From assembly GCA_049287005.1 (NCBI GenBank), contig JBAQEZ010000003.1, forward strand, positions 329,745 to 393,744: a stretch of DNA of 64,000 nucleotides, read 5' to 3'. This stretch comes from Candidatus Moraniibacteriota bacterium (lineage in GTDB: Bacteria; Patescibacteriota; Minisyncoccia; Moranbacterales; UBA1568). Positions 3,468 to 61,950 of this stretch are shown here, piece after piece. Position numbers and translations under genes: made by a program. The stretch's first letter is position 1, and each line of letters starts with the position of its first letter. The notes under the pieces were generated by a model that had not been told where the DNA came from, did not search any database, and saw only the letters and a list, made by a program, of their open reading frames with translations.

Positions 3468-3519
3468 ACGAGGGCGAGGGGCGAAAACATCAAAAGGTGA
3501 AAGCTATTCATAAAAAAGC

Positions 3520-6306: not shown

Positions 6307-6367
6307 GGCTCGGGGGGCGTGTTTCGGATAATCATAAAACAATATAACCATGTAACCCTAAAAACAT

Positions 6368-6673: not shown

Positions 6674-6707
6674 ACATTTTTTCTCGCAGCGGCGAGCAGC
6701 ACATATT

Positions 6708-7142
6708 ATGTCAGAAGAAAAAATTGAGGGAGGGGTAGAGAGCGGGAAAATGAGTGAAGATGGTTCCGAAAAACAGCCGGGGGATGAAGGAACATTGGAA
6801 ATCTTTCCGGCGCAAGAAAAGGCAGTATCTGCCGAAGGGGAGTCAGAGCGGCTCGAAGGAAAATATAACGAGATTCTTGCGAAAGTGGCGCCTCAGACCG
6901 CGACGAGCGGCCAGTTATCTGATCAGGATGCCATGCTGGATGCCAAGAGTATCAGCGCTACGGTTGATGAAGAAAGCAAGATTCAGAAGCTGCTTGATCT
7001 GGCATCATCCAAGGGGGTTGTCTATGCAGTCAAGGTGGCTCGATCTCTTCAGGATTATTACGCGTTGGATCGGATGCACGACGAGTTGGCGGATAAATTG
7101 TACGCAGGGCTTTTGGCGAAAGGCCTTATCACGAAAGAATAA
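6708..7142 (+). CDS. small hypothetical protein (144 aa)
   Basis: Start reassigned to the internal ATG at 6708 (MSEEKIEGG...) because the 6588 start overlaps the upstream gene. Followed by a GC hairpin CGGGATC-CGC-GATCCCG at about 7176-7192. Confidence 0.4.
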   Translation: MSEEKIEGGVESGKMSEDGSEKQPGDEGTLEIFPAQEKAVSAEGESERLEGKYNEILAKVAPQTATSGQLSDQDAMLDAKSISATVDEESKIQKLLDLASSKGVVYAVKVARSLQDYYALDRMHDELADKLYAGLLAKGLITKE

Positions 7143-7287
7143 AAGGAACCATTTGTTTCATTCGTGTCGCCCGCCGGATCGGGATCCGCGATCCCGCCAA
7201 GGCGGTGGCGCGCAATGCTCTATTTTTTAATTTTAAAATTCAGACATTGTTGAGAAATGAGCAAGTGAGCGTTGGAAATTTTCATCT

Positions 7288-9783: not shown

Positions 9784-9874
9784 AAAAAGAGCAGGGATCG
9801 AGAGTTATGAATCAGGAAAGAGACTCTTTTGATTTAAGGAAAGCCTTGCTTCGGGGATTTATGGGCGGCTCCCC

Positions 9875-9903
9875 TTGACTTTCTATGTCTTTTGGAGTAT
9901 AAT
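9875..9903 (+). promoter_or_regulatory. sigma70-like promoter: TTGACT, 17-nt spacer, TATAAT
   Basis: Near-consensus -35 at 9875-9880 and perfect -10 at 9898-9903, about 60 nt upstream of the ATG at 9965, which has a GAGGAG RBS. Confidence 0.6.
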
Positions 9904-9964
9904 TGCGATTTGTACCTTTTGAAACAACCGGCAATGGTGCCGATTCCTCCGAGGAGAATGCGAT

Positions 9965-10357
9965 ATGTTGAAAAACTGGCTGAAGGGTCTGATAATCGGT
10001 CTGATGATCATGGGTTGCACGCTGATTCTGATGTTTGCCAGTCTGCTCATCATTTGGATGGCGGGCGGCAATGAACTTTCTCTGCGCCAGCTTCTCATGG
10101 GCGTGCTGCTGAGCTGGTTCCTGGAGGTTGTGATCCTGATACCGCTCGGATCACTGCCGAGAGAGGTGAACAGGAACGCATTCCTGGCGCGTGCCATCTT
10201 CGTGTGGCTCCCGGTGTCCGGCGGGTGGTTCCTGATGCTCCAGGGGATGCCTCTCTGGGTTTTCCCCGCAGGCATGCTGATCTCCTCCACCTGCGTCGGT
10301 TACAACATGATGGTGACGCACGAGAAGAAAAAACAAGCGGCCAGCAGACGTCCCTAG
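9965..10357 (+). CDS. small integral membrane protein (130 aa), hypothetical
   Basis: Four predicted hydrophobic helices; strong promoter and RBS upstream. Confidence 0.5.
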   Translation: MLKNWLKGLIIGLMIMGCTLILMFASLLIIWMAGGNELSLRQLLMGVLLSWFLEVVILIPLGSLPREVNRNAFLARAIFVWLPVSGGWFLMLQGMPLWVFPAGMLISSTCVGYNMMVTHEKKKQAASRRP

Positions 10358-10539
10358 AGACGGAAAGAGATATGCCAAGAGCAGTGAGGGTAAATCCCGA
10401 TAGCTGCTCTTTGTTTTTTCTTTAAAAAGCTTATTACCAAACCTTTCATTATTGACTTATAACTATCAAAGAAGAGACCAAAGTTTTTGAGGAAACCGCC
10501 TCGAAAAATTGCTTTGCTATTGCGGTGGACGTATCTGCG

Positions 10540-19721: not shown

Positions 19722-20804
19722 TTACTGTCCGTGCATTTCAAGTTTGCGGCGCATGTCTTCTTCTTCGAGGGCAGTGATGATCTGTTCAAAATTGCCGGCC
19801 AACACTTGGGGGATATTGCTCCAAGACATCTTGATGCGGTGATCGGTGATGCGATCCTGGGGGAAATTGTAGGTACGGATCTTCTCGCTGCGATCACCGG
19901 TGCCGATCTGGCTCTTGCGCGCGTCGCCCTGTTCTTTGGCTTGACGGTCTTCTTCTAGCTGGTAAAGACGGGAGCGCAAGACCTTGAGCGCCTTCTCTTT
20001 GTTTTTGATCTGAGACTTTTCGTCCTGACAAGAGACGACCGTATTGGTAGGGAGGTGGGTGATGCGGACGGCGCTGTAGGTCGTGTTGACGGATTGGCCG
20101 CCCGGGCCGGAGGAACAGAACGTGTCGATACGGAGGTCTTCGGGGCGGATGACGACTTCCACCTCTTCGATTTGTGGCAAAATCACCACGGTGGCCGTGG
20201 ACGTGTGGATGCGCCCGGATTTTTCCGTTTCCGGGATGCGCTGGACACGATGAACCCCGGATTCGTACTTCATTTTCTGATAGACGGGGGCAGTGCTTAC
20301 ACCGCGATTGATTTCAAACACGACTTCTTTGAATCCGCCGACTTCCGTTTGGTTGGAGTGGAGCATGACCGTCTGCCAACCTTGTTTCTCAACGTAATGC
20401 GAGTACATGCGGAAAAGTTCCGCGGCGAAAAGACTGGATTCGTCGCCGCCGGCTCCGCCGCGAATTTCGACGATGACATCTTTCTCATCAGCCGGATCTT
20501 TGGGGAGAAGGAGACGTTTGAGTTCCTCTTCGAGCGTGGATTTTTCTCCCGCCAAAGCGAGATTTTCTTCCATGGCCATAGCTTGGAGTTCGGCCTCTTC
20601 CTCATTCTGGGTCAGTTCGGCATTGCCGCGCATGGCAACTTCAATCGCCCGGAGGCGATGCACGCGTTCCAGAATGACGTCCAGTTCGGATTTGCGCCGA
20701 CTCATGGCGACCATTTTCTTGTGGTCATTCTGCAGCGCCTCACTGGCGAGCGCTGCCTCGAGCTCACGATACTCGGCTTCAATTTTCTGAATCAGATTCT
20801 GCAT
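19722..20804 (-). CDS. prfA: peptide chain release factor 1
   Basis: GGQ motif ([11 protein letters not shown]) and RF1-type codon-recognition domain. Confidence 0.95.
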
Positions 20805-26556: not shown

Positions 26557-27885
26557 ATGAAGAGGATACCGGAACAGCAACGAAAGCCTTTGAGCAGAAT
26601 ATTGGTTATCGGTAGCGGTGGCCGTGAACATGCCATCGCGTGGAAACTGGCGCAAAGCCCAGAAGTGGAAGCGGTGTATGTCGCGTCCGGCAATGTTGGA
26701 ACGGCAAGGGAGCCGAAGGTACAGAATATTCCCATTACCGACATTGCGCTCCTCGCGGATTTTGCAGCGCAGAACAGTATCGATGTGACGGTGGTAGGAC
26801 CTGAAGCGCCATTGGTAGCGGGCATCGTGGATCTGTTTCGCGACCGTGGTCTGAAGATTTTTGGTCCGACGCAAGCAGCGGCGCAATTGGAATCCTCCAA
26901 GACTTTCGCGAAGCGTTTCATGAACCGTTGTCATATACCGACTGCGGACTACTGCGAATTCGCTTCCGCGGCATTGGCACATACCTACCTTGTCAGTCGG
27001 TCTCTTGACGATCTGCCGATTGTGGTCAAGGCCGATTGGTTGGCTGCGGGCAAAGGGGTGGTAGTCGCCAAGAGCCACCGTGAGGCGCACGACGCAGTCG
27101 ACATGCTTTTTGCCGCTACGACTGTGCCGGATCAGGAGAAACGGATCATCATCGAAAACTGCATTGCCGGCACGGAGGCGAGTTACATCGTCATGGTTGA
27201 TGGTCGGAATGTTTTGGCATTGGTGACGAGCCAGGATCATAAACGCCTCCTCGACGACAACAGGGGATTGAATACCGGCGGTATGGGAGCGATTTCTCCT
27301 GCGCCTATCATCACGTCTGCTATGAATACGCGCGTCATGCATGAAATTATCATGCCTGCGGTGCACAGAATGGCCGACGAAGGTATCCCGTACACCGGAT
27401 TTCTCTACGCGGGGCTGATGATCGATGCCGAGAACAACCCATATGTACTCGAGTTCAACTGTCGCCTTGGCGATCCGGAAACGGAAGTGATCCTGATGCG
27501 CTTACGGAGCGATCTGTATCCGCTCATCAGGCACGGCGCGAATGGCACGCTGGATTTGGCGAATGCGGAGTGGGATGATCGCGTAGCGCTCGGCGTCGTG
27601 CTGGCAGCTGCCGGTTATCCAGATAAACCGCGCAAGGGGGATCCAATTTCCGGGTTGCCGCGGGAAACCCCTGACTGCAAAGTCTTCCATGCCGGTACCG
27701 CCGAAGCGGGCGACAAGCTCGTTACGGCGGGCGGGCGCGTGTTGTGCGTGACGGTGCTTGGCGACGATATCGGCGATGCGCGGAGGCGAGCTTACGAAGC
27801 GGTGAAAACCGTTCACTTCGCAGGGGTGCAATACCGGAAAGACATCGGCAAATGTGCTTTGGCGGCAGCCGCTGATGTCAACTAA
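26557..27885 (+). CDS. purD: phosphoribosylamine--glycine ligase
   Basis: VLVIGSGGREHAIAWKLAQS N-terminus and an ATP-grasp core (GFLYAGLMI, EFNCRLGDPE). Confidence 0.9.
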   Translation: MKRIPEQQRKPLSRILVIGSGGREHAIAWKLAQSPEVEAVYVASGNVGTAREPKVQNIPITDIALLADFAAQNSIDVTVVGPEAPLVAGIVDLFRDRGLKIFGPTQAAAQLESSKTFAKRFMNRCHIPTADYCEFASAALAHTYLVSRSLDDLPIVVKADWLAAGKGVVVAKSHREAHDAVDMLFAATTVPDQEKRIIIENCIAGTEASYIVMVDGRNVLALVTSQDHKRLLDDNRGLNTGGMGAISPAPIITSAMNTRVMHEIIMPAVHRMADEGIPYTGFLYAGLMIDAENNPYVLEFNCRLGDPETEVILMRLRSDLYPLIRHGANGTLDLANAEWDDRVALGVVLAAAGYPDKPRKGDPISGLPRETPDCKVFHAGTAEAGDKLVTAGGRVLCVTVLGDDIGDARRRAYEAVKTVHFAGVQYRKDIGKCALAAAADVN

Positions 27886-28069
27886 GCGATTGGCAATGTC
27901 GTGACGGATTCCGTTGCGCAAGGGCGGGAGGTGGTAATATGCACCTTTCGCCCGATTTTTTTATACGATTCTTCCTTTTTGACAAAGAGGCCGTGAAGCC
28001 CTATCCTGTAAAGCTGGCTTTGAGCTGGTTTTCGTCCGTTAACAACCGAAAGAGAAAGCGAGGTCTGGA

Positions 28070-28963
28070 ATGACGACATTTCGGGAGCTGCTCCAAATGC
28101 AGTGGCACGCAAGGAAATTCGTCTGCCAGAGGCTCGTCGGTTATCCCGGCAATGGGCCGCAGGTGGAAAAATTCTGGAATGATAGCGATGAAAACGGAAG
28201 GATTGACGCCGCCAATATCACAATCGTGGAAGCGACCAGCGATATTGTTGGTTCCTACGCGTTGAACCTTGCCTTCTACATCGCGCACGGCGACGAGGGT
28301 ATGCATGCTTTGCGCCAGACTGCCTGGTATATTCGTTCCATCGCACCAGAAATTCTTATCATTCTCGACACCATGGATGTCGGCAATACTGATGCCGGCT
28401 CTGTGCGTATGGTATTTGAGTATTGCCAAGCAGACGCTATCATAGTGAATCCCTACCGCGGTATGGAAGCCGCGCAGCCCTTTCTGGATCAGAAAGACAA
28501 AGGTATTATCGTGCTCTGTCGCACGAGTACCGCAGGCGCAAGTGAGTTTCAGGATCTGATTGTGGGCGTTCCTGAAGGTAGCATCGAACCGCTTGTAGGG
28601 AGAGTCGGATCCGAAGTTCCAAAAACCATGCCGCTGTGGGAATATGTGGCGCATAGGGTATCACGGAATTGGAACGGGAATGGCAATTGTGCGCTCGTCG
28701 TCGGAGCTACGTATCCCCAAGAGCTCTCTCAAGTTCGAAGGATTGCCGGTGATATGCCGATGCTTATCCAGGATATCGGCTTTCGTGATGAAGACGTAGA
28801 AAAAACCGTCACAGCGAGTCAGGACAGTCGCGGCCAAGGGATAATCATCAATTCCCGCGGCAGTATATTCGTCATGAAAGGCTGGGATTTCGCTGAAGCG
28901 GCTCGTTCTGACGCGGAAAAGCTCCATAAGCTGATCAACCGATACTCACAAGAAGGAACTTAA
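28070..28963 (+). CDS. orotidine-5'-phosphate decarboxylase-fold protein (type-2 OMPDC-like paralog), atypical active site
   Basis: TIM-barrel OMPDC-like layout. ILDTMDVGNT stands where the catalytic LDxKxGDIGxT would be, with Met in place of the Lys. Ends NSRGSIFVMKG. Confidence 0.45.
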   Translation: MTTFRELLQMQWHARKFVCQRLVGYPGNGPQVEKFWNDSDENGRIDAANITIVEATSDIVGSYALNLAFYIAHGDEGMHALRQTAWYIRSIAPEILIILDTMDVGNTDAGSVRMVFEYCQADAIIVNPYRGMEAAQPFLDQKDKGIIVLCRTSTAGASEFQDLIVGVPEGSIEPLVGRVGSEVPKTMPLWEYVAHRVSRNWNGNGNCALVVGATYPQELSQVRRIAGDMPMLIQDIGFRDEDVEKTVTASQDSRGQGIIINSRGSIFVMKGWDFAEAARSDAEKLHKLINRYSQEGT

Positions 28964-29028
28964 ATATCGAGCAACCAGAAATCGATGATTCATCAACGCA
29001 GGTCCCTTGAACAGAAAAGGAAAAAGAC

Positions 29029-29823
29029 ATGAAAGCATATCCTTATGCAGATCGTTTGATCGTTGCGGCAGACTTTGTCCCGGTGACTAAATTCCCCGTT
29101 GTTGAAGTTCGCGCGAAGGTCATGAGCTTGGCCGAGCAGCTTGAAGGTCTCGGCGTCGGCTTGAAGCTGAATTCCGGTCTCCGAGTCATGGGCTATGATG
29201 TGCTGCGCGATATCACCTCGCTGGGATTGCACGGATTCGCTGACCTCAAGATCGTGGATATCGAAGAAACCATGGCAACTGACGGCAAATTTCTTGCTCA
29301 TTATCAGCCGCGTTACTTGACGGTGATGTGCAATGCCGGTGCTGTGGCGATTCGCGCCATCGCGAAGGAACTACCGAGTACGCGTGTCATCGGCGTCACC
29401 GTTCCCACCAATTGGGACGAAGCGACATGTCAGGGAGTTTATGGTTGCAGTATCCAAGAGGCAGTGATCCGTCTCGCAGGGATTGCCGCGGATGCTGATT
29501 TGCGCGACATCGTCCTCGCCGCCAAGGAAAACCAAGCAGTCCTGAAGTATGGAATTCTCGAGGGAGACAAATTCAAGCATCTCTGCTGCAACAACCCTGC
29601 CATACGTCCGGAATGGGGCAGGGTGAAACGCGACGATCAAGATCCGAAACGCGTTTCTACCGTCACGGGCGCTTTGCAAGCTGGCGCGCAGCGGCTCATC
29701 GTGGGGCGACCGATACTGACTGCGGTGAAGAATAATGAAGGGCTGCCGCAGAGTCCGAGGGAAGCGGTCATCAGAATCCTCGAAGAGATACATCAGTTTG
29801 TTGTTGAAGACAAGACATCCTGA
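29029..29823 (+). CDS. orotidine-5'-phosphate decarboxylase family protein (type 1)
   Basis: LIVAADF N-terminus, DLKIVDIEETM (DxKxxDI motif) and C-terminal LIVGRPI are the OMPDC signatures. Confidence 0.65.
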   Translation: MKAYPYADRLIVAADFVPVTKFPVVEVRAKVMSLAEQLEGLGVGLKLNSGLRVMGYDVLRDITSLGLHGFADLKIVDIEETMATDGKFLAHYQPRYLTVMCNAGAVAIRAIAKELPSTRVIGVTVPTNWDEATCQGVYGCSIQEAVIRLAGIAADADLRDIVLAAKENQAVLKYGILEGDKFKHLCCNNPAIRPEWGRVKRDDQDPKRVSTVTGALQAGAQRLIVGRPILTAVKNNEGLPQSPREAVIRILEEIHQFVVEDKTS

Positions 29824-29849
29824 AACCGACACGAACGAAAGGAAGTCCC

Positions 29850-30593
29850 ATGAGTATCAAGAAACCAGAAATTGTTTTAGGCGATGTTATCGCGACACTG
29901 AGACGCTGCGATGGGGTATACGAATGCCCGATGAGCACGGAAGGGAAACCTCTTGGCCCGCTGGTCGGTTATGCCGGCCAATACGAAGAGGGCGGAAAAC
30001 TCCTGAATTATGTGGGGTTCGTCTACTACAACGTCGGGAAGGGCGACCAGTGGTCGCATATCTCTTCGGGTTGGGCTATGCGTCATGCTCAGCTCCTGAC
30101 CAAGTATTCGCTTGATGTGTTGGTCGCTGCGCCGATGGGCGGTATCTCCTACATGTCGGTCCTCAAGCTCTATATTGATTGTTGCCGTGGCATCTTTGCC
30201 GAAAAGAAGGTGATCGAAGCGGCACAAGAGGGTAAACGGGAGAAATCCAAGCTCATTCTCGGCAGGTATGACATTTGCGAAGGCGATCGGGTTATCCTGC
30301 TCGAGGACATCGTCAATAACTTCTCGACGACGAAGCAGATGATCGAGCTTGTGGAAAATGCCGGCGGAAAAGTGCAGGCTATCGCTTGCGTGATCAATCG
30401 TTCTCTCAAGACCACGTACTGGGAGGCGCCTGCAAGAGATCCTCTTCCTGTCATCTGTTTGGAACACAGGCCGACGCCGCAATACCGGCAAGACGACCCG
30501 GTTGTGGCGGAATATATCGCTGTCGGAAACGTCATCATGAAGCCGAAAGACCGCTGGGCAGAACTGGTCGCAGCAGAAGCGGCATATGCCTGA
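29850..30593 (+). CDS. phosphoribosyltransferase (type I PRTase)-like protein, divergent
   Basis: RVILLEDIVNNFSTTKQMIELV resembles the PRPP-binding hhhhDD..TTG.T motif but lacks the Gly; follows the OMPDC paralogs. Confidence 0.45.
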   Translation: MSIKKPEIVLGDVIATLRRCDGVYECPMSTEGKPLGPLVGYAGQYEEGGKLLNYVGFVYYNVGKGDQWSHISSGWAMRHAQLLTKYSLDVLVAAPMGGISYMSVLKLYIDCCRGIFAEKKVIEAAQEGKREKSKLILGRYDICEGDRVILLEDIVNNFSTTKQMIELVENAGGKVQAIACVINRSLKTTYWEAPARDPLPVICLEHRPTPQYRQDDPVVAEYIAVGNVIMKPKDRWAELVAAEAAYA

Positions 30594-43236: not shown

Positions 43237-44735
<1,499 letters not shown>

Positions 44736-46927: not shown

Positions 46928-47326
46928 TTAATGCTCTCGTTCCTTGAGATTGAGATTGCGGACGAATTGGGCAACGTCCCAGTGGAAAGAGAGTGCCGGC
47001 CCGAATCCGGTCACTGTCGAGGTGGAGGCGTAGTTTCCATTGTTTCCGCTGGAACTACTTTGAGACACTCCCCAGCCCAACTTGAGCTCGGAATTTTCTC
47101 CTTTCGCTTGGAACCAGGGGTTGACGGCCGTGTAGGTTTGCATCGAGCCGGTGCTCTGGACAGAACACTCGAGTTTGTTCTCGATGCAGAATTCCTCAAA
47201 AGTGAGGATTCTTGTGGACGCCGGTTTTTTGGCTGGCTGGTCGATATTGGTGGTAAAGTACCATCCCAGCGTAGTCAGACCACAGATCAGGAGCAATGCT
47301 GACGCAATCTTACTTGTCTTGCTCAT
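46928..47326 (-). CDS. small secreted protein (132 aa), hypothetical
   Basis: RBS GGAGG 5 nt before ATG 47326. Signal peptide MSKTSKIASALLLICGLTTLGWY. The listed 47338 start is a GTG further upstream. Confidence 0.5.
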   Translation of the reverse strand: MSKTSKIASALLLICGLTTLGWYFTTNIDQPAKKPASTRILTFEEFCIENKLECSVQSTGSMQTYTAVNPWFQAKGENSELKLGWGVSQSSSSGNNGNYASTSTVTGFGPALSFHWDVAQFVRNLNLKEREH

Positions 47327-48081
47327 TTGAGCCTCCACTTAGGTTGTTGACGAACGCAGTCAGAATAAATATTCTGATTCACCATTATAGCACTATTTTG
47401 TGCTTTTGTCAATTGTAGAAAAATGGCTTTCTTTGCTGATTTTCTCCTTCTTTTTTATTTGTCTTGCTATATTGCATTTTTATGTATCTGGGGCTATACT
47501 CGACTGACACTAGAGTTGACCCAGTGAAATTGCTTATTTGATGAGCACCCGCAGAGCGGGATTTTACAGGGTAAACAACTGATATCAGGATTCTTGAGAG
47601 ATGATTCTATCTCACGGATTTCCTACCAGCATCCTGCAACTGTGAAGAAGCAGGAAAAGGATGGGCTTGCTCGAAAGCCGCCCAAGGCCAGGGAAGTCGC
47701 TTCTCAGTCCATGCGCAAGCATACCCGCTCGAAAACCCATGTGCGGAAGGCTAAGCGACGTTATAGAGGTGATAACTTGGCAGGACCGGCACTAGACACG
47801 CCGGCACCCTGTAGCCAGGAAAAAACCTCGGCAAGTGCTGGAGGACGGCAGAGTGCAACGCTCTGTCGGACTACACGAGGGAAAGGAAGCCAACGGTTTC
47901 CTTTCCTCTCTCTCAAGAGTCCTGATACGTATGATAAAAAACCAACTTCCTCTGGATTGGTTTTTTGTTGTATGGTGTGTGACTATCCGAGATAAAAAAA
48001 GCAGCGGGCGCCTCTTGTGAAAAGGGGCGTTCGCTGCGTGAGGGGTAGTGCGTTCCTACCGAAACATGAATTGCATGAAGG

Positions 48082-48909
48082 TTACTTGTTGCCGGCGATG
48101 GCGAAGTTCGTCCAGGTGAGGGCGCCGGCGTAATTGGCGCTGATGGTCACGGTGGCCGGATTGCCCACGGTGCCAGGCAGGGTGTTGTTCGCACCGAGCA
48201 CGGTCAGACTATTGGTTGCTGACCCGCCGTAAGCGAAGCTGCCGATACCGTTGGCCGTGTAGTTGGCTTGGGTGTAGATGCCTTGGCCATTGCCCATTTT
48301 GAAGCTGTTGGCAGAGGCACCGGAACTGGCCAAGATGACTGCGCCGGTGCCGGAGCCGCTGGCGTTGAAGCCGCTGACGTTGTTTGCAGTACCGGTATTC
48401 ACCGTGTAACCGAGACTGAAGGCCGAGCCGCTGGCGTCCATGGTATTGCCGCCCGTGGTGTGCGCCTGGCCGTAGCCCACGTCGTTCATCGACGCGTAGT
48501 TGACGGTCGAGTGCTGTACGAGAGCCGCTGTGCCATCCGAGGACTGCGCGATCGCTGAGATGGATTGGCCGCTGGCGCCGTACATGGGCACGTACGACCC
48601 GATCCGGTTGTTCACCACTTGGATACCGCCGCCACCAGTGACAGATGCGTTGACGTCCAGTTTAGTCGTATCCACGCCGTACCCGTAAGGGTTATCGTTG
48701 TTGTTCAGAAACGAAGCGGTGCCGGCGACAGCGAAGCCGCCTGTCTGCACATTGGCATGCGTGGAGCCGGCTGCTACTGCATCGAAAGTGATGGTGCCAC
48801 TTCCGTTCCAGGTCGAGGTGACCGTGGTCGGAGCGGCGGAGGCTGTAGCCGGAGCCAGTGCTGCCGCGATGGCGAGGGAGAGGATCGTCGTCAAGAGATT
48901 CTTATTCAT
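48082..48909 (-). CDS. secreted Gly/Asn/Thr/Ser/Ala-rich repeat protein (275 aa), candidate CsgG-dependent substrate
   Basis: Signal peptide MNKNLLTTILSLAIAAALAPATASA. No Cys. Imperfect Gly/Asn/Gln/Thr-rich repeats such as GNGQGIYTQANYTANGIG. It is the last gene of the CsgG operon. Confidence 0.55.
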   Translation of the reverse strand: MNKNLLTTILSLAIAAALAPATASAAPTTVTSTWNGSGTITFDAVAAGSTHANVQTGGFAVAGTASFLNNNDNPYGYGVDTTKLDVNASVTGGGGIQVVNNRIGSYVPMYGASGQSISAIAQSSDGTAALVQHSTVNYASMNDVGYGQAHTTGGNTMDASGSAFSLGYTVNTGTANNVSGFNASGSGTGAVILASSGASANSFKMGNGQGIYTQANYTANGIGSFAYGGSATNSLTVLGANNTLPGTVGNPATVTISANYAGALTWTNFAIAGNK

Positions 48910-49056
48910 TCTATTCCCTTTTTAAAAGAAAGCAGGACATTGCCCTGTTTCAAACTAACATAGACCGGATGGCCTACGCCTTTAGTACCGTAGCATAGAA
49001 AAAACCCGGTGTCAAGAGTGACCCCGGGCCTCGTGCAATTTTTGCAGTACTGCTTA

Positions 49057-49998
49057 TTATTGTGTTGGGACAGTGTAGTCGAATGTGACAGGCTTCACGT
49101 AGAAGAACTGCTGATTCGCTTCCAGCTGCCGCATGAGGCTGGCAACCAGCACATCCATCACGGCGTAGTCGATCGGCAACTGGGTAGCTCCACCTACTTC
49201 GCCGGAGATGACGTGGTTATGCGCCGCTGACGTTGCTGTCGCGACACCGCCTACGGCCGTGGCCACGATGCTGGTCACGTCTCCGATGAAACGAGTGATG
49301 TGAAAGCCGGCGCTTTTTCCGACGACGGCCGTCTCGAGAGCGAGAGAGCTCATGACGAGACCTGTCGAGATATCGACGATCCGCAGGATAATGCCCACGC
49401 GTGCCGTCGATCCTTTTACGGAGAAACCGATGGCATCGACGTCGGCACCACCACCACCCGTGGCAACAGAGGAAGCATACATGGAGATGGCTCCCGTGAG
49501 CATGTAATTCGCTCCCGTCAGACCTCCATTCGGACCTCCTTTCTGGATCAGGCCGATATTTTTGGGTACGGTTTGTTGAACCATATCCGAGGATTGCTGC
49601 TTGGAGGGAGCCAGAAACTCATGACTGAGCTTGTACTCTTGCGCGATCAGCCCCAGATTGAAGGGGCTGCGTTCGGCAACCTTGAAACCGGCCAGTCTTG
49701 CATAATTGATCAGCAGGTCGGCACAAGCCTGTGTGACTGCTCGAGAATAGCGGACCTGTTCCGCATCGAGGAATTTGCCGGTTTTGTCCGTGCAGTCTCC
49801 TACCATGAGGACAATGCTTGGATTTGCATTCGATGCCCCTTGTTTGAGTTGCTCGATGAGCGAGAGTCCGGATACGACTTTCTCTCCCACGTATTCAGTC
49901 GGAGGTTCCTTCACGACTGTTAACGATGTACATCCTGTAGCCAAAAAGCCAAGCGCCAGCACTATGGCGAAGCGCGTAAACCAGACTGAATTCTTCAT
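49057..49998 (-). CDS. CsgG-family lipoprotein (curli production/transport component-like secretion channel)
   Basis: Lipobox LATGC. Segments PSIVLMVGDCTDKTGKF, TGANYMLTGAISMYASSVATGGGGAD and RVGIILRIVDISTGLVMSS align in order with E. coli CsgG segments KIFVSVYNIQDETGQF, ANIMVEGSIIGYESNVKSGGVGAR and IAVNLRVVNVSTGEILSS. Confidence 0.75.
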   Translation of the reverse strand: MKNSVWFTRFAIVLALGFLATGCTSLTVVKEPPTEYVGEKVVSGLSLIEQLKQGASNANPSIVLMVGDCTDKTGKFLDAEQVRYSRAVTQACADLLINYARLAGFKVAERSPFNLGLIAQEYKLSHEFLAPSKQQSSDMVQQTVPKNIGLIQKGGPNGGLTGANYMLTGAISMYASSVATGGGGADVDAIGFSVKGSTARVGIILRIVDISTGLVMSSLALETAVVGKSAGFHITRFIGDVTSIVATAVGGVATATSAAHNHVISGEVGGATQLPIDYAVMDVLVASLMRQLEANQQFFYVKPVTFDYTVPTQ

Positions 49999-50030
49999 TA
50001 TTATTCGCCTCTCTGTGTCGGGGGGGGGGA

Positions 50031-50477
50031 TTACTTGGGGCCGTTGGTAGACGTTGATGTCGTCAATGACGAGCCCGGGCCCTGCGATGAATCAACACTG
50101 ACCGCTGAACTGGAGTTGTTCTGCGCCGCCGAATCTTTGAAAGCCGGATCGTGTTGCGTCGAAACATAGACCGATCCGCCGTTTTGCAATAACGGCTGCG
50201 CATTCACATTGGTTTCTCCACCGGTCACAGTCTTGGTGGAGTAGTCGTTGAAAGTCGGCGAGCTCGGAGCAAGCGTGATATTGCCTGGTAGCAATCCTCC
50301 GCCACTCATGCGATAGGCCGCCTGAGCTTCCCAATATCCCGGTGGAACAAATGCTCCACCTGCGGCGGTCGTCGGTTGCCAAGTCATCAAATCGCCAGCT
50401 ATTGCTGCCAGCGAAGTGATTCCCAGAATGAAAAACAGCATGATGCCTTTAAGGATGGCAAACTGTTGGTATTTCAT
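50031..50477 (-). CDS. small secreted protein (148 aa), candidate CsgE/CsgF-like accessory
   Basis: Signal peptide, Gly/Ser/Thr/Asn-rich; immediately upstream of the CsgG-like gene. Confidence 0.45.
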   Translation of the reverse strand: MKYQQFAILKGIMLFFILGITSLAAIAGDLMTWQPTTAAGGAFVPPGYWEAQAAYRMSGGGLLPGNITLAPSSPTFNDYSTKTVTGGETNVNAQPLLQNGGSVYVSTQHDPAFKDSAAQNNSSSAVSVDSSQGPGSSLTTSTSTNGPK

Positions 50478-50763
50478 TGTCGATCTCCTTGGTTGAGGGT
50501 TGTATTGCCGGCTTCGGGAAAAGGGTCACTGTGTTCGGATCTACGAACGATGGAGACACTTGTCCTTGTTCCGTTTCGGCAGGACGCGCTCCACCGGGAG
50601 CACGTAAGTCGAACTCAAGACCCGCCGGAGCGGGAGGTATTCCTGGGTGTTGGGGACAAATCGGCATGGCTGCCGTTTTCTCCACATGCGCCAAGTTTTC
50701 CGAAGATGCTTGTGCGATCAAACCGACCGAAAGAAACACCATCAGAATAACGGACTTGTACAT
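50449..50763 (-). CDS. small secreted protein (104 aa), Pro-rich
   Basis: Start at MYKSVILMVFLSVGLIAQASS (signal peptide); first gene of the minus-strand operon. Confidence 0.4.
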   Translation of the reverse strand: MYKSVILMVFLSVGLIAQASSENLAHVEKTAAMPICPQHPGIPPAPAGLEFDLRAPGGARPAETEQGQVSPSFVDPNTVTLFPKPAIQPSTKEIDNEIPTVCHP

Positions 50764-54191: not shown

Positions 54192-55634
<1,443 letters not shown>

Positions 55635-55924
55635 ACCGGAAGTTTCAAACCTCCGCTTAAGATAGTTCATCAATATAACGATGCTATTGGAAGCGGAGGC
55701 TATTTTTTTGATTCTGCGTAAATTCGAATATGTTTGACTTTTTTCTTTCGGCAATTTATACTATTGGCACAGGGGTTACTATTGAATACGGATGTATGCG
55801 AGGAAATATTAGTTTCATTATTAAGACAAAGACAAGCTCATTTTTGAGAGCTGGTTTTTGACTTTCTTCTGAACTTCCAAGGAAATTTCAAACGAGCTCT
55901 CAAGAAGGGCTCGTTTTTCTTTTT

Positions 55925-56254
55925 ATGGAGGAAAATCAAATGCCAAGTTTAGAGAAACAGAACCTTAATAATCAGCAATCCGATGCAAACAAGGAGCAAG
56001 CACGTTTTTGTAGTGCTATACGCGAAGCCTTTAGTTTGTTGAAAAAACAAAAGAAAGGATGTGTCGTCATTGATACTGGCTTCATTTTTCGTACGCATAG
56101 GCTAGTCCTTGAGCTCACGGAAAATGGTTGGGTTTTACGGCCAAATAATTATCTTCATCCCTCGGAGGTAATCAAACGTTACCCAGAAAGGAGTCGTCGC
56201 GCGCGATTTTACAGAATGCGCCATGCCCAAAAATGTTGGCTCAGCCTTGTTTGA
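55925..56254 (+). CDS. small hypothetical protein (109 aa)
   Basis: ORF preceded by a hairpin; no known motif. Confidence 0.3.
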   Translation: MEENQMPSLEKQNLNNQQSDANKEQARFCSAIREAFSLLKKQKKGCVVIDTGFIFRTHRLVLELTENGWVLRPNNYLHPSEVIKRYPERSRRARFYRMRHAQKCWLSLV

Positions 56255-56393
56255 TTGGAATAACAGTCACTGGAGCAGAACCTTGCTCCAGTTTTTCTTT
56301 GTTAAAAAGCATTTTTTGAGAAAAAAAACGGCCGCATCCTTGGGGGATTCCCAAAGACACGGCGTGAAAAGTTTTGTATACAAGCAGGGGATG

Positions 56394-57944
56394 TTACTCC
56401 CATTCGATCGTTGCGGGGGGCTTGGTGTTGTAATCGAAGATGCAACGAGAAATGCCATGCGTGCTCGTTGCTATTGCCCGGATTTCTTCTTCGATATCCC
56501 GCGGCAGGTAGTAGGGATCAGCTGTCATGAAATCGACTGACACAACCGGACGAACAGCGATGACCGGGCCATAGACGCGGCTGTCACCTTTTTGGCCTGT
56601 GGTATTGATTCCCCACAATCCGACGACGAGCTGTGAAATCATTTCCAGGTGGCCGGTGCGTTCGAGAATGAGACTGGTACCCTCTTCTTTTTCAGCGACA
56701 ATGTCAAGGCGCTGGAGAGTGACCGGAATACCAATCACCCTTGGGATATTACCCGGTCCTGGAAAGGGCGGACGATTGTAGACGCTTTCTGGGAGACCAG
56801 CCTCCCGTCCCAAGAGACGTACTTGATGCTTGAAAAGATGTGCCAAAGGAGTGAGCTCTTTAAAGCCGAGCTCTTTCCATGGGATACCCTTGTTGTGATG
56901 GGTTTTGATGTGGACTCCACCCCGGTGTCCCGATTCAATTTCATCCGCGATGTTGGTACCATCGCCCATCGTCACTCCTTCCTTGAACCGCTGGCGGAAG
57001 GCGACGATTTGTCGAGTGTAAATGCCCTGGAATATCTTGCGCTTCTCTTCGCCATTGATGGTGTGAGCGAAAGCTTCATCCACTTCATCTCTTGCATCCA
57101 AAAGGTGCCAGGGCAAGCCGAGATGTTTGGCGATGCTCTTCTGAAAAGCAACATCACCCCTTCGCTGGTTGCCACAGTCCACGGTGACCAAGTGCGTGCG
57201 GTCTTTCAGTTCCTTTGGGACATGGGCGGCCATGGTCGAAGAGTCAACGCCGGCGCTGAAGGGAATGACGAGCTGGCCGTCACCAACGATCTCAATGATA
57301 CGCTCGCGGATAGCATCGCCTTCTCGCGATTTTTGTATGTTGGCTTGGCATCCGGCGATCTTCGTCAGAAAGTTGACGATCATCTTTTCTCCCCACTTCG
57401 TGTGAGTTACCTCGGGATGGAATTGGACTGCCTCATGCGTACCATCGCCCATGGCCGCGAGCACATCCTGACCTGTGTAGGCATAAGCGGTAAAGCCAGG
57501 CGGGACTTTTACGACACGATCCCCGTGATTGGACCAGACCACTTGCTCCGATGGCATTTCGCTGAGGAGGCTACCGTGATGAATGATACGCAAGTTGGTT
57601 CTGCCGTGTTCAGGCTGGCCGGGTTTGACCTCTCCTCCGAGGAGATAAGCCATAGCTTGCATGCCGAAGCAGATTCCGAAAATTGGCATGAGCCGTCCAT
57701 CTTTCCGCTTGAGGTCAAAGAGTTCTTTGGGTGGCAGAGGAGCGTCTTTGTCATCCACGCTCATTGCGCCGCCGGAGAGAATGACGGTTTGAACGGGATT
57801 TTGGTTGAGCCAATTCATGAGGCCTTCCAGTCCTATGACCGTAGAACGAAAACCATGCTTTTCAACGACTTCCTTGATCTTGAATGTAGTTTGCGACCGG
57901 CATTGGACGATTGCGACTTGCGGGAGATTCGAGGCTGTAAGCAT
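56394..57944 (-). CDS. guaA: GMP synthase (glutamine-hydrolysing)
   Basis: GATase domain (GICFGMQ), ATP-PPase SAGVDSS, and the C-terminal KPPATIEWE signature. Confidence 0.95.
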   Translation of the reverse strand: MLTASNLPQVAIVQCRSQTTFKIKEVVEKHGFRSTVIGLEGLMNWLNQNPVQTVILSGGAMSVDDKDAPLPPKELFDLKRKDGRLMPIFGICFGMQAMAYLLGGEVKPGQPEHGRTNLRIIHHGSLLSEMPSEQVVWSNHGDRVVKVPPGFTAYAYTGQDVLAAMGDGTHEAVQFHPEVTHTKWGEKMIVNFLTKIAGCQANIQKSREGDAIRERIIEIVGDGQLVIPFSAGVDSSTMAAHVPKELKDRTHLVTVDCGNQRRGDVAFQKSIAKHLGLPWHLLDARDEVDEAFAHTINGEEKRKIFQGIYTRQIVAFRQRFKEGVTMGDGTNIADEIESGHRGGVHIKTHHNKGIPWKELGFKELTPLAHLFKHQVRLLGREAGLPESVYNRPPFPGPGNIPRVIGIPVTLQRLDIVAEKEEGTSLILERTGHLEMISQLVVGLWGINTTGQKGDSRVYGPVIAVRPVVSVDFMTADPYYLPRDIEEEIRAIATSTHGISRCIFDYNTKPPATIEWE

Positions 57945-58208
57945 GGTAGTTATCCTCTCGGTAGGAAGGGTTGATGGGATACAGATTGGAAATGAACTTC
58001 CCCACAGGCTAGCAGAAAAGCCATATTTTGGGAAGAAATCAAGTTCTAGTCCGAAAACTTGTGCGACTGGCCCCTCTTTTCTTTTTGTGCGGTTTCGTTG
58101 ACTGGAGGATGAACTTTTGCTACTCTATAATATGGTCTTTAAAAATATATTCTAGCGAGGCTTTATTAAAGCCTTATTTTTGCAACTGTTTCCTGAAAGG
58201 AGGATGTC

Positions 58209-58928
58209 ATGGCGATGAAAGTAAAACCAAGGATTTGGGTGTTGGCATCGGGTGATGCAACTGGCGGTGGTTCCGGTTTTCAGGAAATGGTGGAATACAC
58301 CAAGACAGAGCCTGCCATACTACACGCCGAGATTGTTGGTGTGACATCAAACCATCCTTCTGGCGGAGTGTTCAAGAGAGCTCGCGCGCTGGGGATGGGA
58401 GGCATCTTTCATTACTGGCCTGGACCTTTTACGGCAGCAGGATACCGCGAGCGGTTCGAAGCATCTGGTGCGGAATGGATCATGTGTTCTGGGTGGCTGT
58501 ATCCGGTCTCTGGTCTGAATCCGGCGAGAACCGTCAACATCCATCCGGGACCGCTGCCGCGCTTCGGCGGCAAGGGGATGTGGGGGCACCACGTTCACGA
58601 GGCGGTCATGGCTGCCTATCATCGTGGCGAACTGCAGCAGAGTGCCGTGACGATGCACTTCGTTTTTGACTATGAAGAGCAGAAAAAGCGAGGGGTCGCT
58701 GACCCATACGACAAGGATCCGATCATCTGTCAATTTCCTGTCCTCATCCGCCTCGACGATACGCCGGAAACGTTGGCGAAACGGGTGAACGAGGTGGAGC
58801 GGGTCATGCAATCCCGCGTCCTCGATCTTCTCGTGAATGGGCACGTCTGGTTGGACGATGGCGGCGGGGTGCAGTATGACCTGCTCGCCGGCATGACACT
58901 TTCTGCGATGGGAGGGATGCCCCGATAG
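58209..58928 (+). CDS. purN: phosphoribosylglycinamide formyltransferase-like (PurN family)
   Basis: RIWVLASG N-terminus and NIHPGPLPRFGG (compare PurN NIHPSLLPxF.G). Confidence 0.65.
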   Translation: MAMKVKPRIWVLASGDATGGGSGFQEMVEYTKTEPAILHAEIVGVTSNHPSGGVFKRARALGMGGIFHYWPGPFTAAGYRERFEASGAEWIMCSGWLYPVSGLNPARTVNIHPGPLPRFGGKGMWGHHVHEAVMAAYHRGELQQSAVTMHFVFDYEEQKKRGVADPYDKDPIICQFPVLIRLDDTPETLAKRVNEVERVMQSRVLDLLVNGHVWLDDGGGVQYDLLAGMTLSAMGGMPR

Positions 58929-59199
58929 CTCGGTGGATTTTCATAGCTCCGCCAATGAACGCCGCATCCTAGAGTTGCTTGCCGCTTGCCGCTCGAATCA
59001 TGGGTTGCCAGCGGTTTTTCTTTTTCTTGCCTCTTTTGAGGCCTTTTGATAGACTATGAGACCTGCTTTGGCAGGCGAGGCGCCCTTTAAAAACCTGTAT
59101 TTTAACGAAGAGCCAGCTAGATTTCAGCCAGTGGAGGTTGTTTTTGGCCTTCACAGCCATATTCGCAGTTTCGTGCAGTTCAACCAGAGGAGAGTCACC

Positions 59200-61950
59200 A
59201 TGGCTATCACTCGTATTGTTGTCGCGCCGCAGAAGGAGTCGGGGGAGTCTCCGGATGATATCTTTTGCATCATCAATCTGGAAACAGCAATCCCTCTCTC
59301 GAATGTTTCCGTACTACATTCCTTGTTTGCTGACGGTATCACGGCAGATGTCGTGGAAATGATGCCGGCAGGAAACTTCAAGGAAGTCATGTACCACAAC
59401 GGTGTCATCGATCCCAAGCAGCAGGCGATCATTGAGCTCTGCGCCAAGCGGGGCGTCGCCGTTGAAGCGGTCAAGGTGGGCTATCGGTACTACGGCAAGA
59501 GCATGAACGACCTGTATGTGAACAAGGTCGTGCATATCGCTTTCACCGCAGAACCGCAGCTCACAACGCTCAAGCCCAGCGGCGTCCGTCAGGAGATGCA
59601 ATATTTCGATCTCTGCGTGATGGAAGATACAACGCTGACACAGCTGAGCCAGGATCGCGAGTTGCATCTTTCGCTCTCGCAGATGAAGCAGCTGGTACAC
59701 TTCCAGAAACAGCTCGGCCTCCTCGCGGTATCTGATGTCTATCTGGAAACATTCGCTGCCTTCTGGAGCGAGCACTGCTTTCACACGTTGTGGAAGGCAC
59801 TCGGCCTGTTCAAGATGCTCAAGGCGGCGACCGCCCGTATCGGCAATCCCAATTTGCTGTCGGCTTTTGTTGACAACGCCGGCGTGTGGGATTTCTACGA
59901 TGGGCTCGCCCTCCTGTTCAAGCTCGAGACGCACAACTCACCGACGCAGTCCGAGCCCTTCGGTGGGCAGATGACGAAATTGGGCGGGGTCATTCGTGAC
60001 ATTCTCGAGAATGGCCTCGGCGCCAAATCTATCGGCAACCTGGAGCTCACCGTCATCGGCGAGCTTGTGCGCAAGCGCTATTCGGAATTGCAGGGCGCTA
60101 TGTCGGCATCCGTGATGGCTCGGGAGACCGTGCGGGCGATCGCCAGTTATGGCAACCCGATGGGCATTCCGATGCTGTTGGCACGCATGATGAGCCACCC
60201 GGACTTCAGCGGCAAACCATTCGCACTCGGCGGCACCGTCGGTATCACGACTCGGGCCGCCGCGGAAAAGGGCGTGCCTCATGAGGGCGACCTGGTGGTG
60301 CTCGTCGGCGGACGGACAGGCAACGATGGGTTGCACGGAGCGACGATCAGCTCCGGTGGCATTACCGAACATACCGATAGCGGTGACAAAACGCATGTGC
60401 AAATCGGCCTCCCATTCACGGAACAGAAGATGGTGCGGGCCGGAGTTGCACTGCGTGACGCTGGCTGTTGCAGCGCGCGCAATGATTTCGGCGCGGCCGG
60501 CATCGTGTCGTGTTTCGGTGAAATGGGCAAGGGTACAGACGGGGTGGGCGGCATTCTCGTCAATCTCGCCTTGGTGCCGCTGAAGTGTGCCGGCATGGCG
60601 AATTGGCAGATCGCTCTCTCTGAAAGTCAGGAACGCTTCGGTCACGCCGTGAAACCGGAGAAATGGGCAGAGGCACGGGCTATCTACGAGCAGTACGGTC
60701 TGGAAGCGACGGTCATCGGCGTCTTTACCAAGAGCCAGCGTTTTCAGATGTTCTATGACGCTGGCGTCATATCGGTGCCGGGGATGGAGCTGTCGGGCGA
60801 AATTTGCCTGGATGTTCCGTATGCGTTTTTCGACGAATGTCCCTTGCCCGAAGTCGTTGTGCAGGAACCGGTACGAGCGATGAAATCGTTACTCTGCCCG
60901 AAATATCCGAAAATCACGCCTGCCAATGTGAGAGAGATGGGTCTGCATGTCGTCGGGCATTTCGATGTCTGCGATCAATCCTCCGCGATAACGCAGTATG
61001 ACGCATCGGTCCAGGGAATTACCTTCCAAGGGCCGCTCTATGGCAAGGATTACAACGTCGCTACGTCGCTGGCGGTTCTCCGTCCGGTGTTCGGAAAACC
61101 TTTCGGGGCTACGGTGAGTATCAGTTTTTCGCCGTGGCATTTCGAAGCGGATCCGGTCAGTGCTGCTGTCAATACCATGATGGACGTCCTAGTGACCCAA
61201 GTGGTGGCCGGCGTGCAGGTGCAGGACATTGCGCTGTCGGATAATTTCTACACCGATGGTGCTGATCCGGTATCGCTCTGGTATCTGCGTGAACAGGTTA
61301 AGGCGCTGACAGGCCTTTCTCTCATCACCGGAACGCCGTTCATCACGGGGAAGGACAGTTCGTCGGGGCGCGGGACATTCGGTGGTGTTACTGTCAAAGT
61401 GCCGCCGAGCGTCGCCATTACCGCATTGGGCAAAGTGCCCGATGTGCACCGGCTCGTGCCTCATCAATGGCAAGGGGCGGGGAACAAGCTTGTTGTTTTG
61501 GGGCCGCGCGCTGTGCTTCTCGACGGGTCGATCCTCTCTTCGTCACTGGGTATTGCCGGAACGACTTTGGACCGCTTCCCTGTTGCAGAGGCGCGGACCT
61601 ACCTGGAAGAGCTCGACGCATCGGCTCGGCAAGGCGTCTTCGCATCGGCTGTGCCTATCAACCGCGGCGGAGTATTCCTGCGTTTGTTCGAAGGCATCGA
61701 GGCTTCGGGGCTGGGATTCGAGGCGGAGGTGTGTGCTGAACTCTTTCCGGAAAGTATGGGATGTGTTCTGGTGGAAGTTTCACCGGAGGATGCGGAATGG
61801 CTTCTTCAGGAATCCGATTTTGATACGCTCGTGGTGGGAACCATCGTGTCGGATCGGAAGCTATCGGTTCAAGGGGTGGAGTTTGATCTCAATTCGCTCC
61901 GCCAGGTATGGCAGGGCACATTCAAGGAGGCACTCTATGGCAACGAGTAG
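59200..61950 (+). CDS. purL: phosphoribosylformylglycinamidine synthase subunit PurL (with PurS-like N-terminal segment)
   Basis: ETHNSPTQSEPFGG (PurL ETHNHPS motif) and duplicated AIR-synthase-like domains. Start at ATG 59200 with a GAGGAGAG RBS; the listed 59056 start gives a spurious N-extension. Confidence 0.85.
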   Translation: MAITRIVVAPQKESGESPDDIFCIINLETAIPLSNVSVLHSLFADGITADVVEMMPAGNFKEVMYHNGVIDPKQQAIIELCAKRGVAVEAVKVGYRYYGKSMNDLYVNKVVHIAFTAEPQLTTLKPSGVRQEMQYFDLCVMEDTTLTQLSQDRELHLSLSQMKQLVHFQKQLGLLAVSDVYLETFAAFWSEHCFHTLWKALGLFKMLKAATARIGNPNLLSAFVDNAGVWDFYDGLALLFKLETHNSPTQSEPFGGQMTKLGGVIRDILENGLGAKSIGNLELTVIGELVRKRYSELQGAMSASVMARETVRAIASYGNPMGIPMLLARMMSHPDFSGKPFALGGTVGITTRAAAEKGVPHEGDLVVLVGGRTGNDGLHGATISSGGITEHTDSGDKTHVQIGLPFTEQKMVRAGVALRDAGCCSARNDFGAAGIVSCFGEMGKGTDGVGGILVNLALVPLKCAGMANWQIALSESQERFGHAVKPEKWAEARAIYEQYGLEATVIGVFTKSQRFQMFYDAGVISVPGMELSGEICLDVPYAFFDECPLPEVVVQEPVRAMKSLLCPKYPKITPANVREMGLHVVGHFDVCDQSSAITQYDASVQGITFQGPLYGKDYNVATSLAVLRPVFGKPFGATVSISFSPWHFEADPVSAAVNTMMDVLVTQVVAGVQVQDIALSDNFYTDGADPVSLWYLREQVKALTGLSLITGTPFITGKDSSSGRGTFGGVTVKVPPSVAITALGKVPDVHRLVPHQWQGAGNKLVVLGPRAVLLDGSILSSSLGIAGTTLDRFPVAEARTYLEELDASARQGVFASAVPINRGGVFLRLFEGIEASGLGFEAEVCAELFPESMGCVLVEVSPEDAEWLLQESDFDTLVVGTIVSDRKLSVQGVEFDLNSLRQVWQGTFKEALYGNE

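Follow-up and report, generated by a model that had tools for sequence, protein, structure and literature searches.

CsgG is a textbook outer-membrane channel and also serves as the nanopore of commercial sequencing. In the curli system of Escherichia coli (type VIII secretion) it is accompanied by CsgE, CsgF, CsgA, and CsgB, and the published CsgG structure places the lipid anchor and the hairpins side by side in a single membrane. In the holdfast anchor of Caulobacter, the CsgG-family protein HfaB is flanked by HfaA and HfaD, which are secreted, exported, and cell-associated anchors of the adhesive structure. Approximately 74% of the matches to the Pfam family CsgG (PF03783) were found outside curli systems and were described as a 'larger protein family' (Dueholm et al. 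2012, PMC3521004); because most PF03783 proteins lie outside curli operons, a CsgG match alone does not imply curli. In this study, a module of four genes encoding a CsgG-family lipoprotein and three further secreted proteins was analyzed in a stretch of 64,000 nucleotides (hereafter, the window) from Candidatus Moraniibacteriota bacterium (contig JBAQEZ010000003.1, positions 329,745 to 393,744), a member of the Patescibacteria or Candidate Phyla Radiation (CPR). In the literature searched, neither CsgG nor curli was found to be discussed for CPR, Patescibacteria, or monoderm bacteria; two co-mentions of CsgG and Patescibacteria proved irrelevant, and one co-mention of CsgG and 'candidate phyla radiation' was left unexamined.

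The module consists of four co-directional open reading frames (ORFs) on the minus strand (window positions 48082–50763), designated g1 to g4. The first gene, g1 (50449–50763, minus strand; 104 aa), starts with an ATG at 50763 preceded by the Shine–Dalgarno sequence GAAAGGAG; the mechanically called ORF comprises 121 aa and starts farther upstream. The first 29 nt of g2 (50031–50477, minus strand; 148 aa) are shared with the end of g1; next come g3 (49057–49998, minus strand; 313 aa), encoding the CsgG-family lipoprotein, and g4 (48082–48909, minus strand; 275 aa), encoding a secreted, Cys-free, Ala/Gly/Thr/Asn/Ser-rich and predicted all-beta protein, presumably the cargo or a surface component. 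N-terminal signal sequences were recognized by inspection in all four products, and g1, g2, and g4 had no family match in Pfam and NCBIfam. An earlier note on this DNA had described a four-gene minus-strand layout composed of a CsgG-family lipoprotein, two small secreted proteins unlike CsgE and CsgF, and a secreted, Cys-free, Gly/Asn/Thr-rich protein downstream of g3, all within a window of non-proteobacterial character. This description was confirmed by the ORF list and by the searches presented below.

The family assignment of g3 was obtained from several comparisons. The protein matched PF03783 with 63.2 bits (gathering score 20.8, E = 2.7e-17), the precomputed PF03783 assignment held for 30 out of 30 g3 homologues, and the name of g3 at NCBI is already 'CsgG/HfaB family protein'. 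A profile of the g3 clade matched the solved E. coli CsgG chains in the PDB with E = 3e-19. Alignment of g3 to E. coli CsgG with hhalign resulted in a probability of 98.4% (E = 4.8e-15) and 28% identity over 188 columns, beginning at the first core strand and reaching as far as the C-terminal helix. The score against the NCBIfam CsgG equivalog NF011731 was 36.4 bits at a cut-off of 505 and, thus, below the orthologue threshold. As judged from these sequence comparisons, g3 is a true member of the CsgG family.

Furthermore, the lipobox, the constriction loop, and both barrel hairpins of E. coli CsgG were recognized in g3. The lipobox reads LATG|C, its Cys23 being invariant in 25 sequences (by inspection). 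Within the constriction loop, the stretch LRYSRAVTQ represents the most conserved segment of the family, with R83, Y84, and S85 invariant in the 25 sequences and R86 near-invariant. The residues Tyr51, Asn55, and Phe56 of E. coli CsgG correspond to Ala, Arg83, and Tyr84 in g3, the latter two being part of the invariant RYS motif; the canonical constriction rings are thus not kept. Unlike its E. coli counterpart, the loop is bracketed by two cysteines, Cys69 and Cys92 (window 49720–49795). They were lost jointly in four sequences and, for this reason, probably form a disulfide bracing the constriction loop. The first transmembrane hairpin (TM1) matches that of E. coli CsgG in length and retains the Gly-rich turn, and the second (TM2) also aligns to E. 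coli CsgG, but differs by an insertion of approximately 23 aa at its tip. The columns of both hairpins are conserved and alternate between hydrophobic and polar residues, as in amphipathic strands. In the AlphaFold2 (AF2) model of g3, with a mean predicted local distance difference test (pLDDT) of 64, long strands were found at residues 165–181, 190–209, and 215–234. The strands 165–181 and 190–209 appeared as expected of the TM1 hairpin, and the TM2 tip was disordered and of low confidence. Given the homology, g3 would most likely form a CsgG-type ring with a barrel-like conduit.

As csgE and csgF do in E. coli, the genes for two small secreted proteins immediately precede the channel gene. 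The g2 gene was always located immediately upstream of the CsgG-like gene, and g1 homologues occupied the same position in nine other loci; because of this strict position upstream of g3, g1 and g2 are, on the evidence of gene order, dedicated partners of g3. The g1 protein is Pro-rich, with the conserved motifs GL.FD..APGGARP and DP.TVTLFP. It had no match in Pfam, NCBIfam, or the PDB and no similarity to CsgE (hhalign not significant). Its two cysteines, Cys34 and Cys102, lie one near each end and are present or absent as a pair, both being lost in two of the related loci (L007 and L020); they are probably joined as a disulfide between the N- and C-terminal ends. The paired loss of Cys residues in g3 and g1 suggests extracytoplasmic disulfides in a CPR bacterium. 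The mature N-terminus of g2 carries a near-invariant W-x-P-x-T-x-A-G-G motif, kept even in the sister clade described below, in which P35, T37, A39, G40, and G41 were invariant in an alignment of 11 sequences. The C-terminus is a variable, Ser/Thr/Asn-rich tail. No g2 match was found in Pfam (11 out of 11 members scanned, E ≤ 10) or in the PDB, and the hhalign comparison with CsgF was not significant. Unlike the E. coli curli system, the module therefore contains no homologue of CsgE (PF10627) or CsgF (PF10614). A plugging of the barrel by the g2 N-terminus in the fashion of CsgF is proposed by analogy only.

The g4 protein contains no Cys, and 65% of its residues are Ala, Gly, Thr, Asn, or Ser; among the 275 residues, there are only five Lys or Arg and seven Asp or Glu. 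Being Cys-free and Gly/Asn/Ser/Thr-rich, it resembles a curli substrate, and a Cys-free, charge-poor composition is usual for proteins threaded unfolded through narrow channels. The earlier note had interpreted g4 as a protein of imperfect repeats in a curli-like functional amyloid system and had proposed to look for a beta-solenoid. None of this was supported. The best local self-alignment of g4 was no better than that of a shuffled sequence (z = −0.12), indicating compositional bias instead of internal repeats. Curlin repeats (PF07012) were not matched in Pfam at E ≤ 1, and the hhalign probability for CsgA was 0.45%; the repeats of CsgA and CsgB, which characterize the E. coli system, are thus missing from the module. 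The AF2 model computed from a 14-sequence alignment (pLDDT 87.8; predicted TM-score, pTM, 0.83) consists of one compact all-beta domain, an antiparallel meander with strands of 15–21 residues and no stack of repeat units. In this predicted single-domain fold, g4 would also differ from the E. coli substrate. Foldseek searches against the PDB and viral models resulted only in matches with E ≥ 0.02 and TM < 0.16, CsgA not being among them. Sequence searches of the PDB and PHROGs were empty, and no g4 relatives were present in IMG/VR, i.e., no known unrelated family was matched. Conserved residues were mainly located in Tyr/Gly-rich loops (NPYGYGV, SY.PMYG..GQS, GYGQ, and G.G.G.YT). Because conservation concentrates in these loops of the model, g4 looks more like a folded surface, binding, or structural protein than like an amyloid core.

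An exhaustive HMMER search among 1.84 billion cluster representatives yielded 149 g4 relatives, nearly all of them stand-alone proteins of 250–330 aa. In the CsgG-linked g4 clade, eight out of ten representatives were Cys-free; the other g4 clades contain Cys. Distant g4-like, secreted, Cys-containing proteins were observed amid small ORFs without family in locus L006 (6001–6846; metagenome-assembled genome (MAG) of Dehalococcoidia) and in L023, L024, and L025, with a conserved neighbor of approximately 260 aa following the g4-like gene in L006 and L023. None of these four loci displayed a CsgG gene, the upstream sequence being missing for L023. The g4 superfamily therefore extends beyond the CsgG module, and it is entirely uncharacterized.

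Expression signals were also read around the module; the promoter elements upstream of g1 are consensus matches only. Upstream of g1, and divergent from a SulP transporter gene (51038), a promoter-like TTGAAA-16-TATACT is located at 50939–50912 (minus strand), and a second promoter-like element was recognized by eye on the same strand, consisting of TTGACA (50846–50841), a 17-nt spacer, and TG-n-TATCAA (to 50818). The intergenic leader between g3 and g4 (48910–49056, minus strand) contains, in order, a terminator, an extended −10-like element, two hairpins, and a ribosome-binding site. The terminator is a GC-rich hairpin with a T-run (49029–48999), and the extended −10-like element reads TGcTACGGT (48995–48987; TGnTAnnnT across the loci). 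It is followed by the second hairpin, by a third hairpin (48947–48933) with a U-run, which was also found by the terminator scan, and, at the end of the leader, by the ribosome-binding site AAGGGAA ahead of g4. This order of elements was common to five CPR loci (window 48910–49056; L001 6964–7130; L003 6949–7125; L004 5835–6000; L012 5853–6040), and compensatory changes, i.e., alterations on both sides with the pairing kept, were detected in 16 of the 37 predicted pairs. A TTGACA and a GGGAA ribosome-binding site close the shared layout, the TTGACA missing from the window's copy. The leader had no family match in Rfam and could represent an attenuator or an mRNA-stabilizing 5' untranslated region. 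Moreover, the GC content at third codon positions (GC3) of g4 was 0.77, the highest in the window (22 other genes, 0.49–0.71), suggesting the codon bias of a highly expressed gene. The conservation of the leader with compensatory changes and a GC3 at the top of the range both agree with g4 being a structural gene of separate and strong expression. The putative substrate gene would accordingly be transcribed apart from the channel gene, as csgBA is from csgDEFG. A terminator-like hairpin followed by seven T residues (47994–48036, minus strand; GCAGCG..GCC...GGC..CGCTGC and TTTTTTT) ends the module.

To evaluate the distribution of the module, all fetched loci were analyzed by context look-ups and hidden Markov model (HMM) mapping. 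Homologues were rare and almost all of metagenomic origin, with 30 clusters for g3 (36–100% identity) and 14 clusters for g4. The earlier note had suggested a check on related genomes, and the gene order was indeed conserved there. The complete order g1-g2-g3-g4 was found in the window and in L001/L002, L003, L004/L005/L011, and L012/L013. In two JGI contigs, the genes surrounding the CsgG-like gene follow one another in the same size order, and a g4 homologue was confirmed in one of them. Only g3-g4 was seen in L010, and g1-g2-g3 reached the contig end in L009, L014, and L015. Across the close-clade loci, the module proteins were 47–77% identical, and g4 followed g3 in eight out of eight lineages in which the contig continues. 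The module occurred in five different neighborhoods (SulP and 16S; trmD and rpoB; a cyo operon; PG_binding and PAP2; RNR and a secreted protein), indicating that it travels as a unit; the RNR/secreted-protein neighborhood was seen only as g1-g2-g3, as the contigs end there. The genes downstream of g4 were not conserved among the loci. In total, the module order was found in at least seven other lineages, those with named markers being Parcubacteria/Paceibacterota, and the CPR contigs with the full module were 0.37–0.77 Mb long. The RpoB sequences of L001, L003, L004, and L012 fall into 90%-identity clusters with the Patescibacteria group, Parcubacteria bacterium C7867-004, and Candidatus Paceibacterota. 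Because of these RpoB clusters, the full module is, by marker-gene assignment, a feature of Parcubacteria-group CPR genomes.

A sister clade (L007, L008, and L016–L020) carries g1-, g2-, and g3-like genes with 35–40% identity but no g4, and lacks the TM2 insertion and the Cys pairs. The binning of two of its loci, both 2.7-kb contigs, as Deltaproteobacteria is weak evidence of taxonomy. Among the GTDB species representatives, the sole g3 matches were 35–37% identical and originated from 2.7-kb contigs binned as Syntrophobacter and Deltaproteobacteria. The loci L016–L020 are low in GC and encode a g1-like protein of 106 aa and a g2-like protein of 119 aa (e.g., L020 1093–2630). Their g3-like ORF breaks off after 'SAEAG' at 232–264 aa, followed in L020 by a 494-aa ORF on the opposite strand, and the g3-like gene may be interrupted. 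In L010 (CAJDUX010000515.1, 2370 bp), the two contig ends both fall within one g3 sequence and share identical stretches of 32 aa. The resulting arrangement g3-g4-g3 reflects a tandem duplication or else an artefact of assembly (circular or collapsed).

Concerning the host, g3 and g4 were 100% identical to MFZ2187555.1 and MFZ2187554.1 of an NCBI MAG of Candidatus Moraniibacteriota (766,823-bp contig), and a second Candidatus Moraniibacteriota MAG carries g3 and g4 as well. The best named relatives of the RF1 gene of the window (19722–20804), with 70–86% identity, all belong to Candidatus Moranbacteria/Moraniibacteriota, in agreement with the non-proteobacterial character proposed earlier. The remaining window contains housekeeping genes and many large ORFs without family. 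GC3 values of g1 to g3 (0.49–0.62) were inside the range of the other window genes; together with the Moraniibacteriota markers, this makes contamination or very recent transfer untenable. Patescibacteria are monoderm by description (PMC11665869), and their outer membrane was lost (PMC10160955). According to the marker genes, the host is a member of the Patescibacteria (CPR) from the Candidatus Moranbacteria lineage, described as monoderm, whereas the E. coli host of the curli system is a diderm.

In comparison with known systems, the module shares with the non-curli PF03783 paralogues the position outside any csg operon, but is distinguished from them by three partner families that form a defined and conserved set and by a defined lineage (CPR). 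A curli system was rejected, since every defining curli feature tested failed, save the membership in the CsgG family. The arrangement of a CsgG-family lipoprotein beside genes for secreted proteins also resembles HfaA/HfaB/HfaD of Caulobacter, and a role in adhesion or anchoring would suit a surface-attached lifestyle. However, the Caulobacter system belongs to an alphaproteobacterial diderm and not to a CPR monoderm, and the partner families differ. When g1, g2, and g4 were scanned against NCBIfam at E ≤ 1, all matches were at chance level and none was to an Hfa model, the presence of Hfa models in the library not being verified. We know of no BamA-independent oligomeric outer-membrane pore from a monoderm bacterium. 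According to PMC13067283 (citing Dunstan 2015), CsgG assembly in E. coli is BamA-independent; the GspD/PulD secretins, Wza, and CsgG are multimeric, BamA-independent pores of identical subunits (PMC13067283). As CsgG assembles without BamA, a g3 ring appears feasible in principle in a lineage without BAM, although the characterized examples sit in a true outer membrane.

The module is best explained as an apparatus that is specific to CPR, is built on a CsgG-type protein, and serves to export, thread, or anchor a surface protein of high abundance, i.e., as an analogue of the curli and holdfast-anchor systems with three new partner families; we give this interpretation about an even chance of being correct. 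The g1 to g4 products would exit the cytoplasm via Sec, as their signal sequences indicate. The g3 protein would be lipidated at Cys23 and assemble into an oligomeric, CsgG-like ring, in which the two amphipathic hairpins would build a beta-barrel conduit. As suggested by their strict co-occurrence and position, g2 and g1 would be accessory subunits of the ring, analogous in role to CsgF and CsgE without being their homologues, and the invariant mature N-terminus of g2 is the candidate contact with the ring. The g4 protein would be produced in surplus under a promoter and structured leader of its own and would be the cargo, which the ring passes or anchors and which would be displayed as an abundant, folded, beta-rich coat, adhesin, or fiber. 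As no classical outer membrane is present, the ring most likely spans or organizes the zone of the wall and S-layer. Insertion of the hairpins into the cell's own membrane is unlikely, because a leak would result.

Several observations weigh against this interpretation. In a monoderm cell, a channel seems unnecessary, since there is no outer membrane to be crossed (PMC11665869, PMC10160955), and confidence in the g3 model is only moderate (pLDDT 64). The genes g3 and g4 are split by a terminator as well as a separate promoter-like element, the sister-clade loci L016–L020 and L008 carry g1-g2-g3 without g4, and g4-like proteins with 31–39% identity occur without a CsgG gene nearby in L006, L024, and L025. 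Finally, the prediction for g4 is a stable folded domain, and a domain of this kind could not get through a constriction of CsgG size.

The same separation of g3 and g4 could mean that two functions merely lie side by side, with g1-g2-g3 forming an envelope complex, e.g., a wall-zone scaffold or a solute conduit, and g4 being an independent S-layer protein or adhesin. The terminator and promoter-like element between the genes, the loci possessing only one of the two parts (g1-g2-g3 in L016–L020 and L008; g4-like genes in L006, L024, and L025), and the expectation that Sec export alone should release g4 in a monoderm cell agree with this proposal. Nevertheless, g4 follows g3 in all eight close-clade lineages and in five neighborhoods, with a conserved structured spacer, and only the CsgG-linked g4 clade is nearly entirely Cys-free (8/10), which suggests adaptation to this CsgG-like partner; independence of the two parts is considered rather unlikely. 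A curli-like functional amyloid, in which g4 would be secreted unfolded via the CsgG-like channel and polymerize outside, with g1 and g2 as analogues of CsgE and CsgF, is regarded as improbable. It is contradicted by the lack of internal repeats (z = −0.12) and curlin repeats in g4 (hhalign to CsgA 0.45%), by the predicted single domain with 15–21-residue strands in place of a short-repeat stack, CsgA being absent from the structural matches, and by conservation in the loops NPYGYGV, SY.PMYG..GQS, and GYGQ instead of a repeated core. Neither CsgE nor CsgF homology was found, g4-like proteins occur without a CsgG gene nearby, and most PF03783 proteins are not curli proteins (PMC3521004).

Conserved amphipathic hairpins in an organism without its own outer membrane (PMC11665869), with a TM2 hairpin approximately 23 residues longer than in E. 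coli, also allow for a host-directed pore, in which the hairpins of a self-inserting CsgG-like ring would enter the membrane of the host on which the episymbiont resides, the ring serving as a conduit for nutrients or g4. The BamA-independent assembly of CsgG (PMC13067283) would be compatible with self-insertion, and the way in which Patescibacteria extract nutrients from their hosts is an acknowledged unknown (PMC11665869). However, the anchor and hairpins of CsgG share one membrane, and the N-terminal linker of g3 is, by count, about as long as that of E. coli CsgG; wall and S-layer would separate the two membranes. In addition, an epibiont lifestyle of the lineage has no support in the present data, and no toxin-like or contact-site genes are adjacent to the module. 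A pore of this kind is judged very unlikely. An artefact, i.e., a mis-binned or contaminating Gram-negative fragment or a very recent, non-functional transfer, could be suspected from the raised GC content at 48–50 kb (0.568, compared to roughly 0.43–0.58 elsewhere) and from the sole matches among GTDB representatives, the relatives with 35–37% identity on 2.7-kb contigs binned as Syntrophobacter/Deltaproteobacteria. This suspicion is hardly credible: the module is contiguous with the 16S rRNA gene and the Moranbacteria-type RF1 gene in the 64-kb window and on a 767-kb contig, is present in a second Moraniibacteriota MAG, has g1–g3 GC3 values (0.49–0.62) within the range of other genes, and consists of intact ORFs conserved in several CPR lineages. 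Contiguity and conservation across CPR genomes effectively rule it out.

Further features were observed in the window outside the module. A complete 16S rRNA gene stands alone at 43238–44734 (plus strand; Rfam, 1399 bits), and no 23S gene, 5S gene, or spacer tRNAs were found within the 64 kb, indicating an unlinked rRNA operon. Many nucleotide-biosynthesis genes are located at 26557–30593 and 54240–61950, encoding PurD, a phosphoribosyltransferase, PurB, GuaA, a formyltransferase, and PurL, and the set includes two OMP-decarboxylase-like genes side by side; such pathways are frequently missing from CPR genomes. A VirD4/TraG-like coupling ATPase (7288–9783) was identified in the region 822–13074, flanked by ORFs of 881, 928, and 844 aa without Pfam match, and a surface apparatus of the type IV secretion or conjugation-like kind may be encoded here. 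The module is closely followed by a 136-aa ORF (46928–47338, minus strand) that has a hydrophobic segment at its N-terminus and a stretch rich in Ser and Asn. It is preceded by its own perfect (12/12) sigma-70 consensus promoter (47412–47384); this ORF was not conserved in the related loci.

With g1, g2, and g4, three unannotated protein families were defined, one of them with a confident predicted fold and no significant structural relative, and g3 appears to represent a natural CsgG variant with altered pore lining, featuring an Arg/Tyr ring and a probable disulfide brace. A conserved CsgG-family gene in Patescibacteria raises the question of which role an 'outer-membrane' pore plays in a cell that, by description, has one membrane. 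The finding bears on the CPR envelope, on the display of adhesins and exchange with the host, for which nutrient extraction is an acknowledged unknown (PMC11665869), and on the survival or re-use of diderm machinery after loss of the outer membrane. In a more far-reaching proposal, which we consider doubtful to the point of being quite unlikely, monoderm CPR episymbionts would have kept or recruited a BAM-independent, self-assembling CsgG-type ring as a trans-envelope or host-directed conduit, the lengthened hairpins crossing the S-layer and wall or entering the host membrane, with g2 as the plug and g4 as adhesin or cargo. If true, an 'outer-membrane' secretion channel would for the first time be seen to function in a bacterium that has no outer membrane, and it would be a candidate route of symbiont–host exchange.

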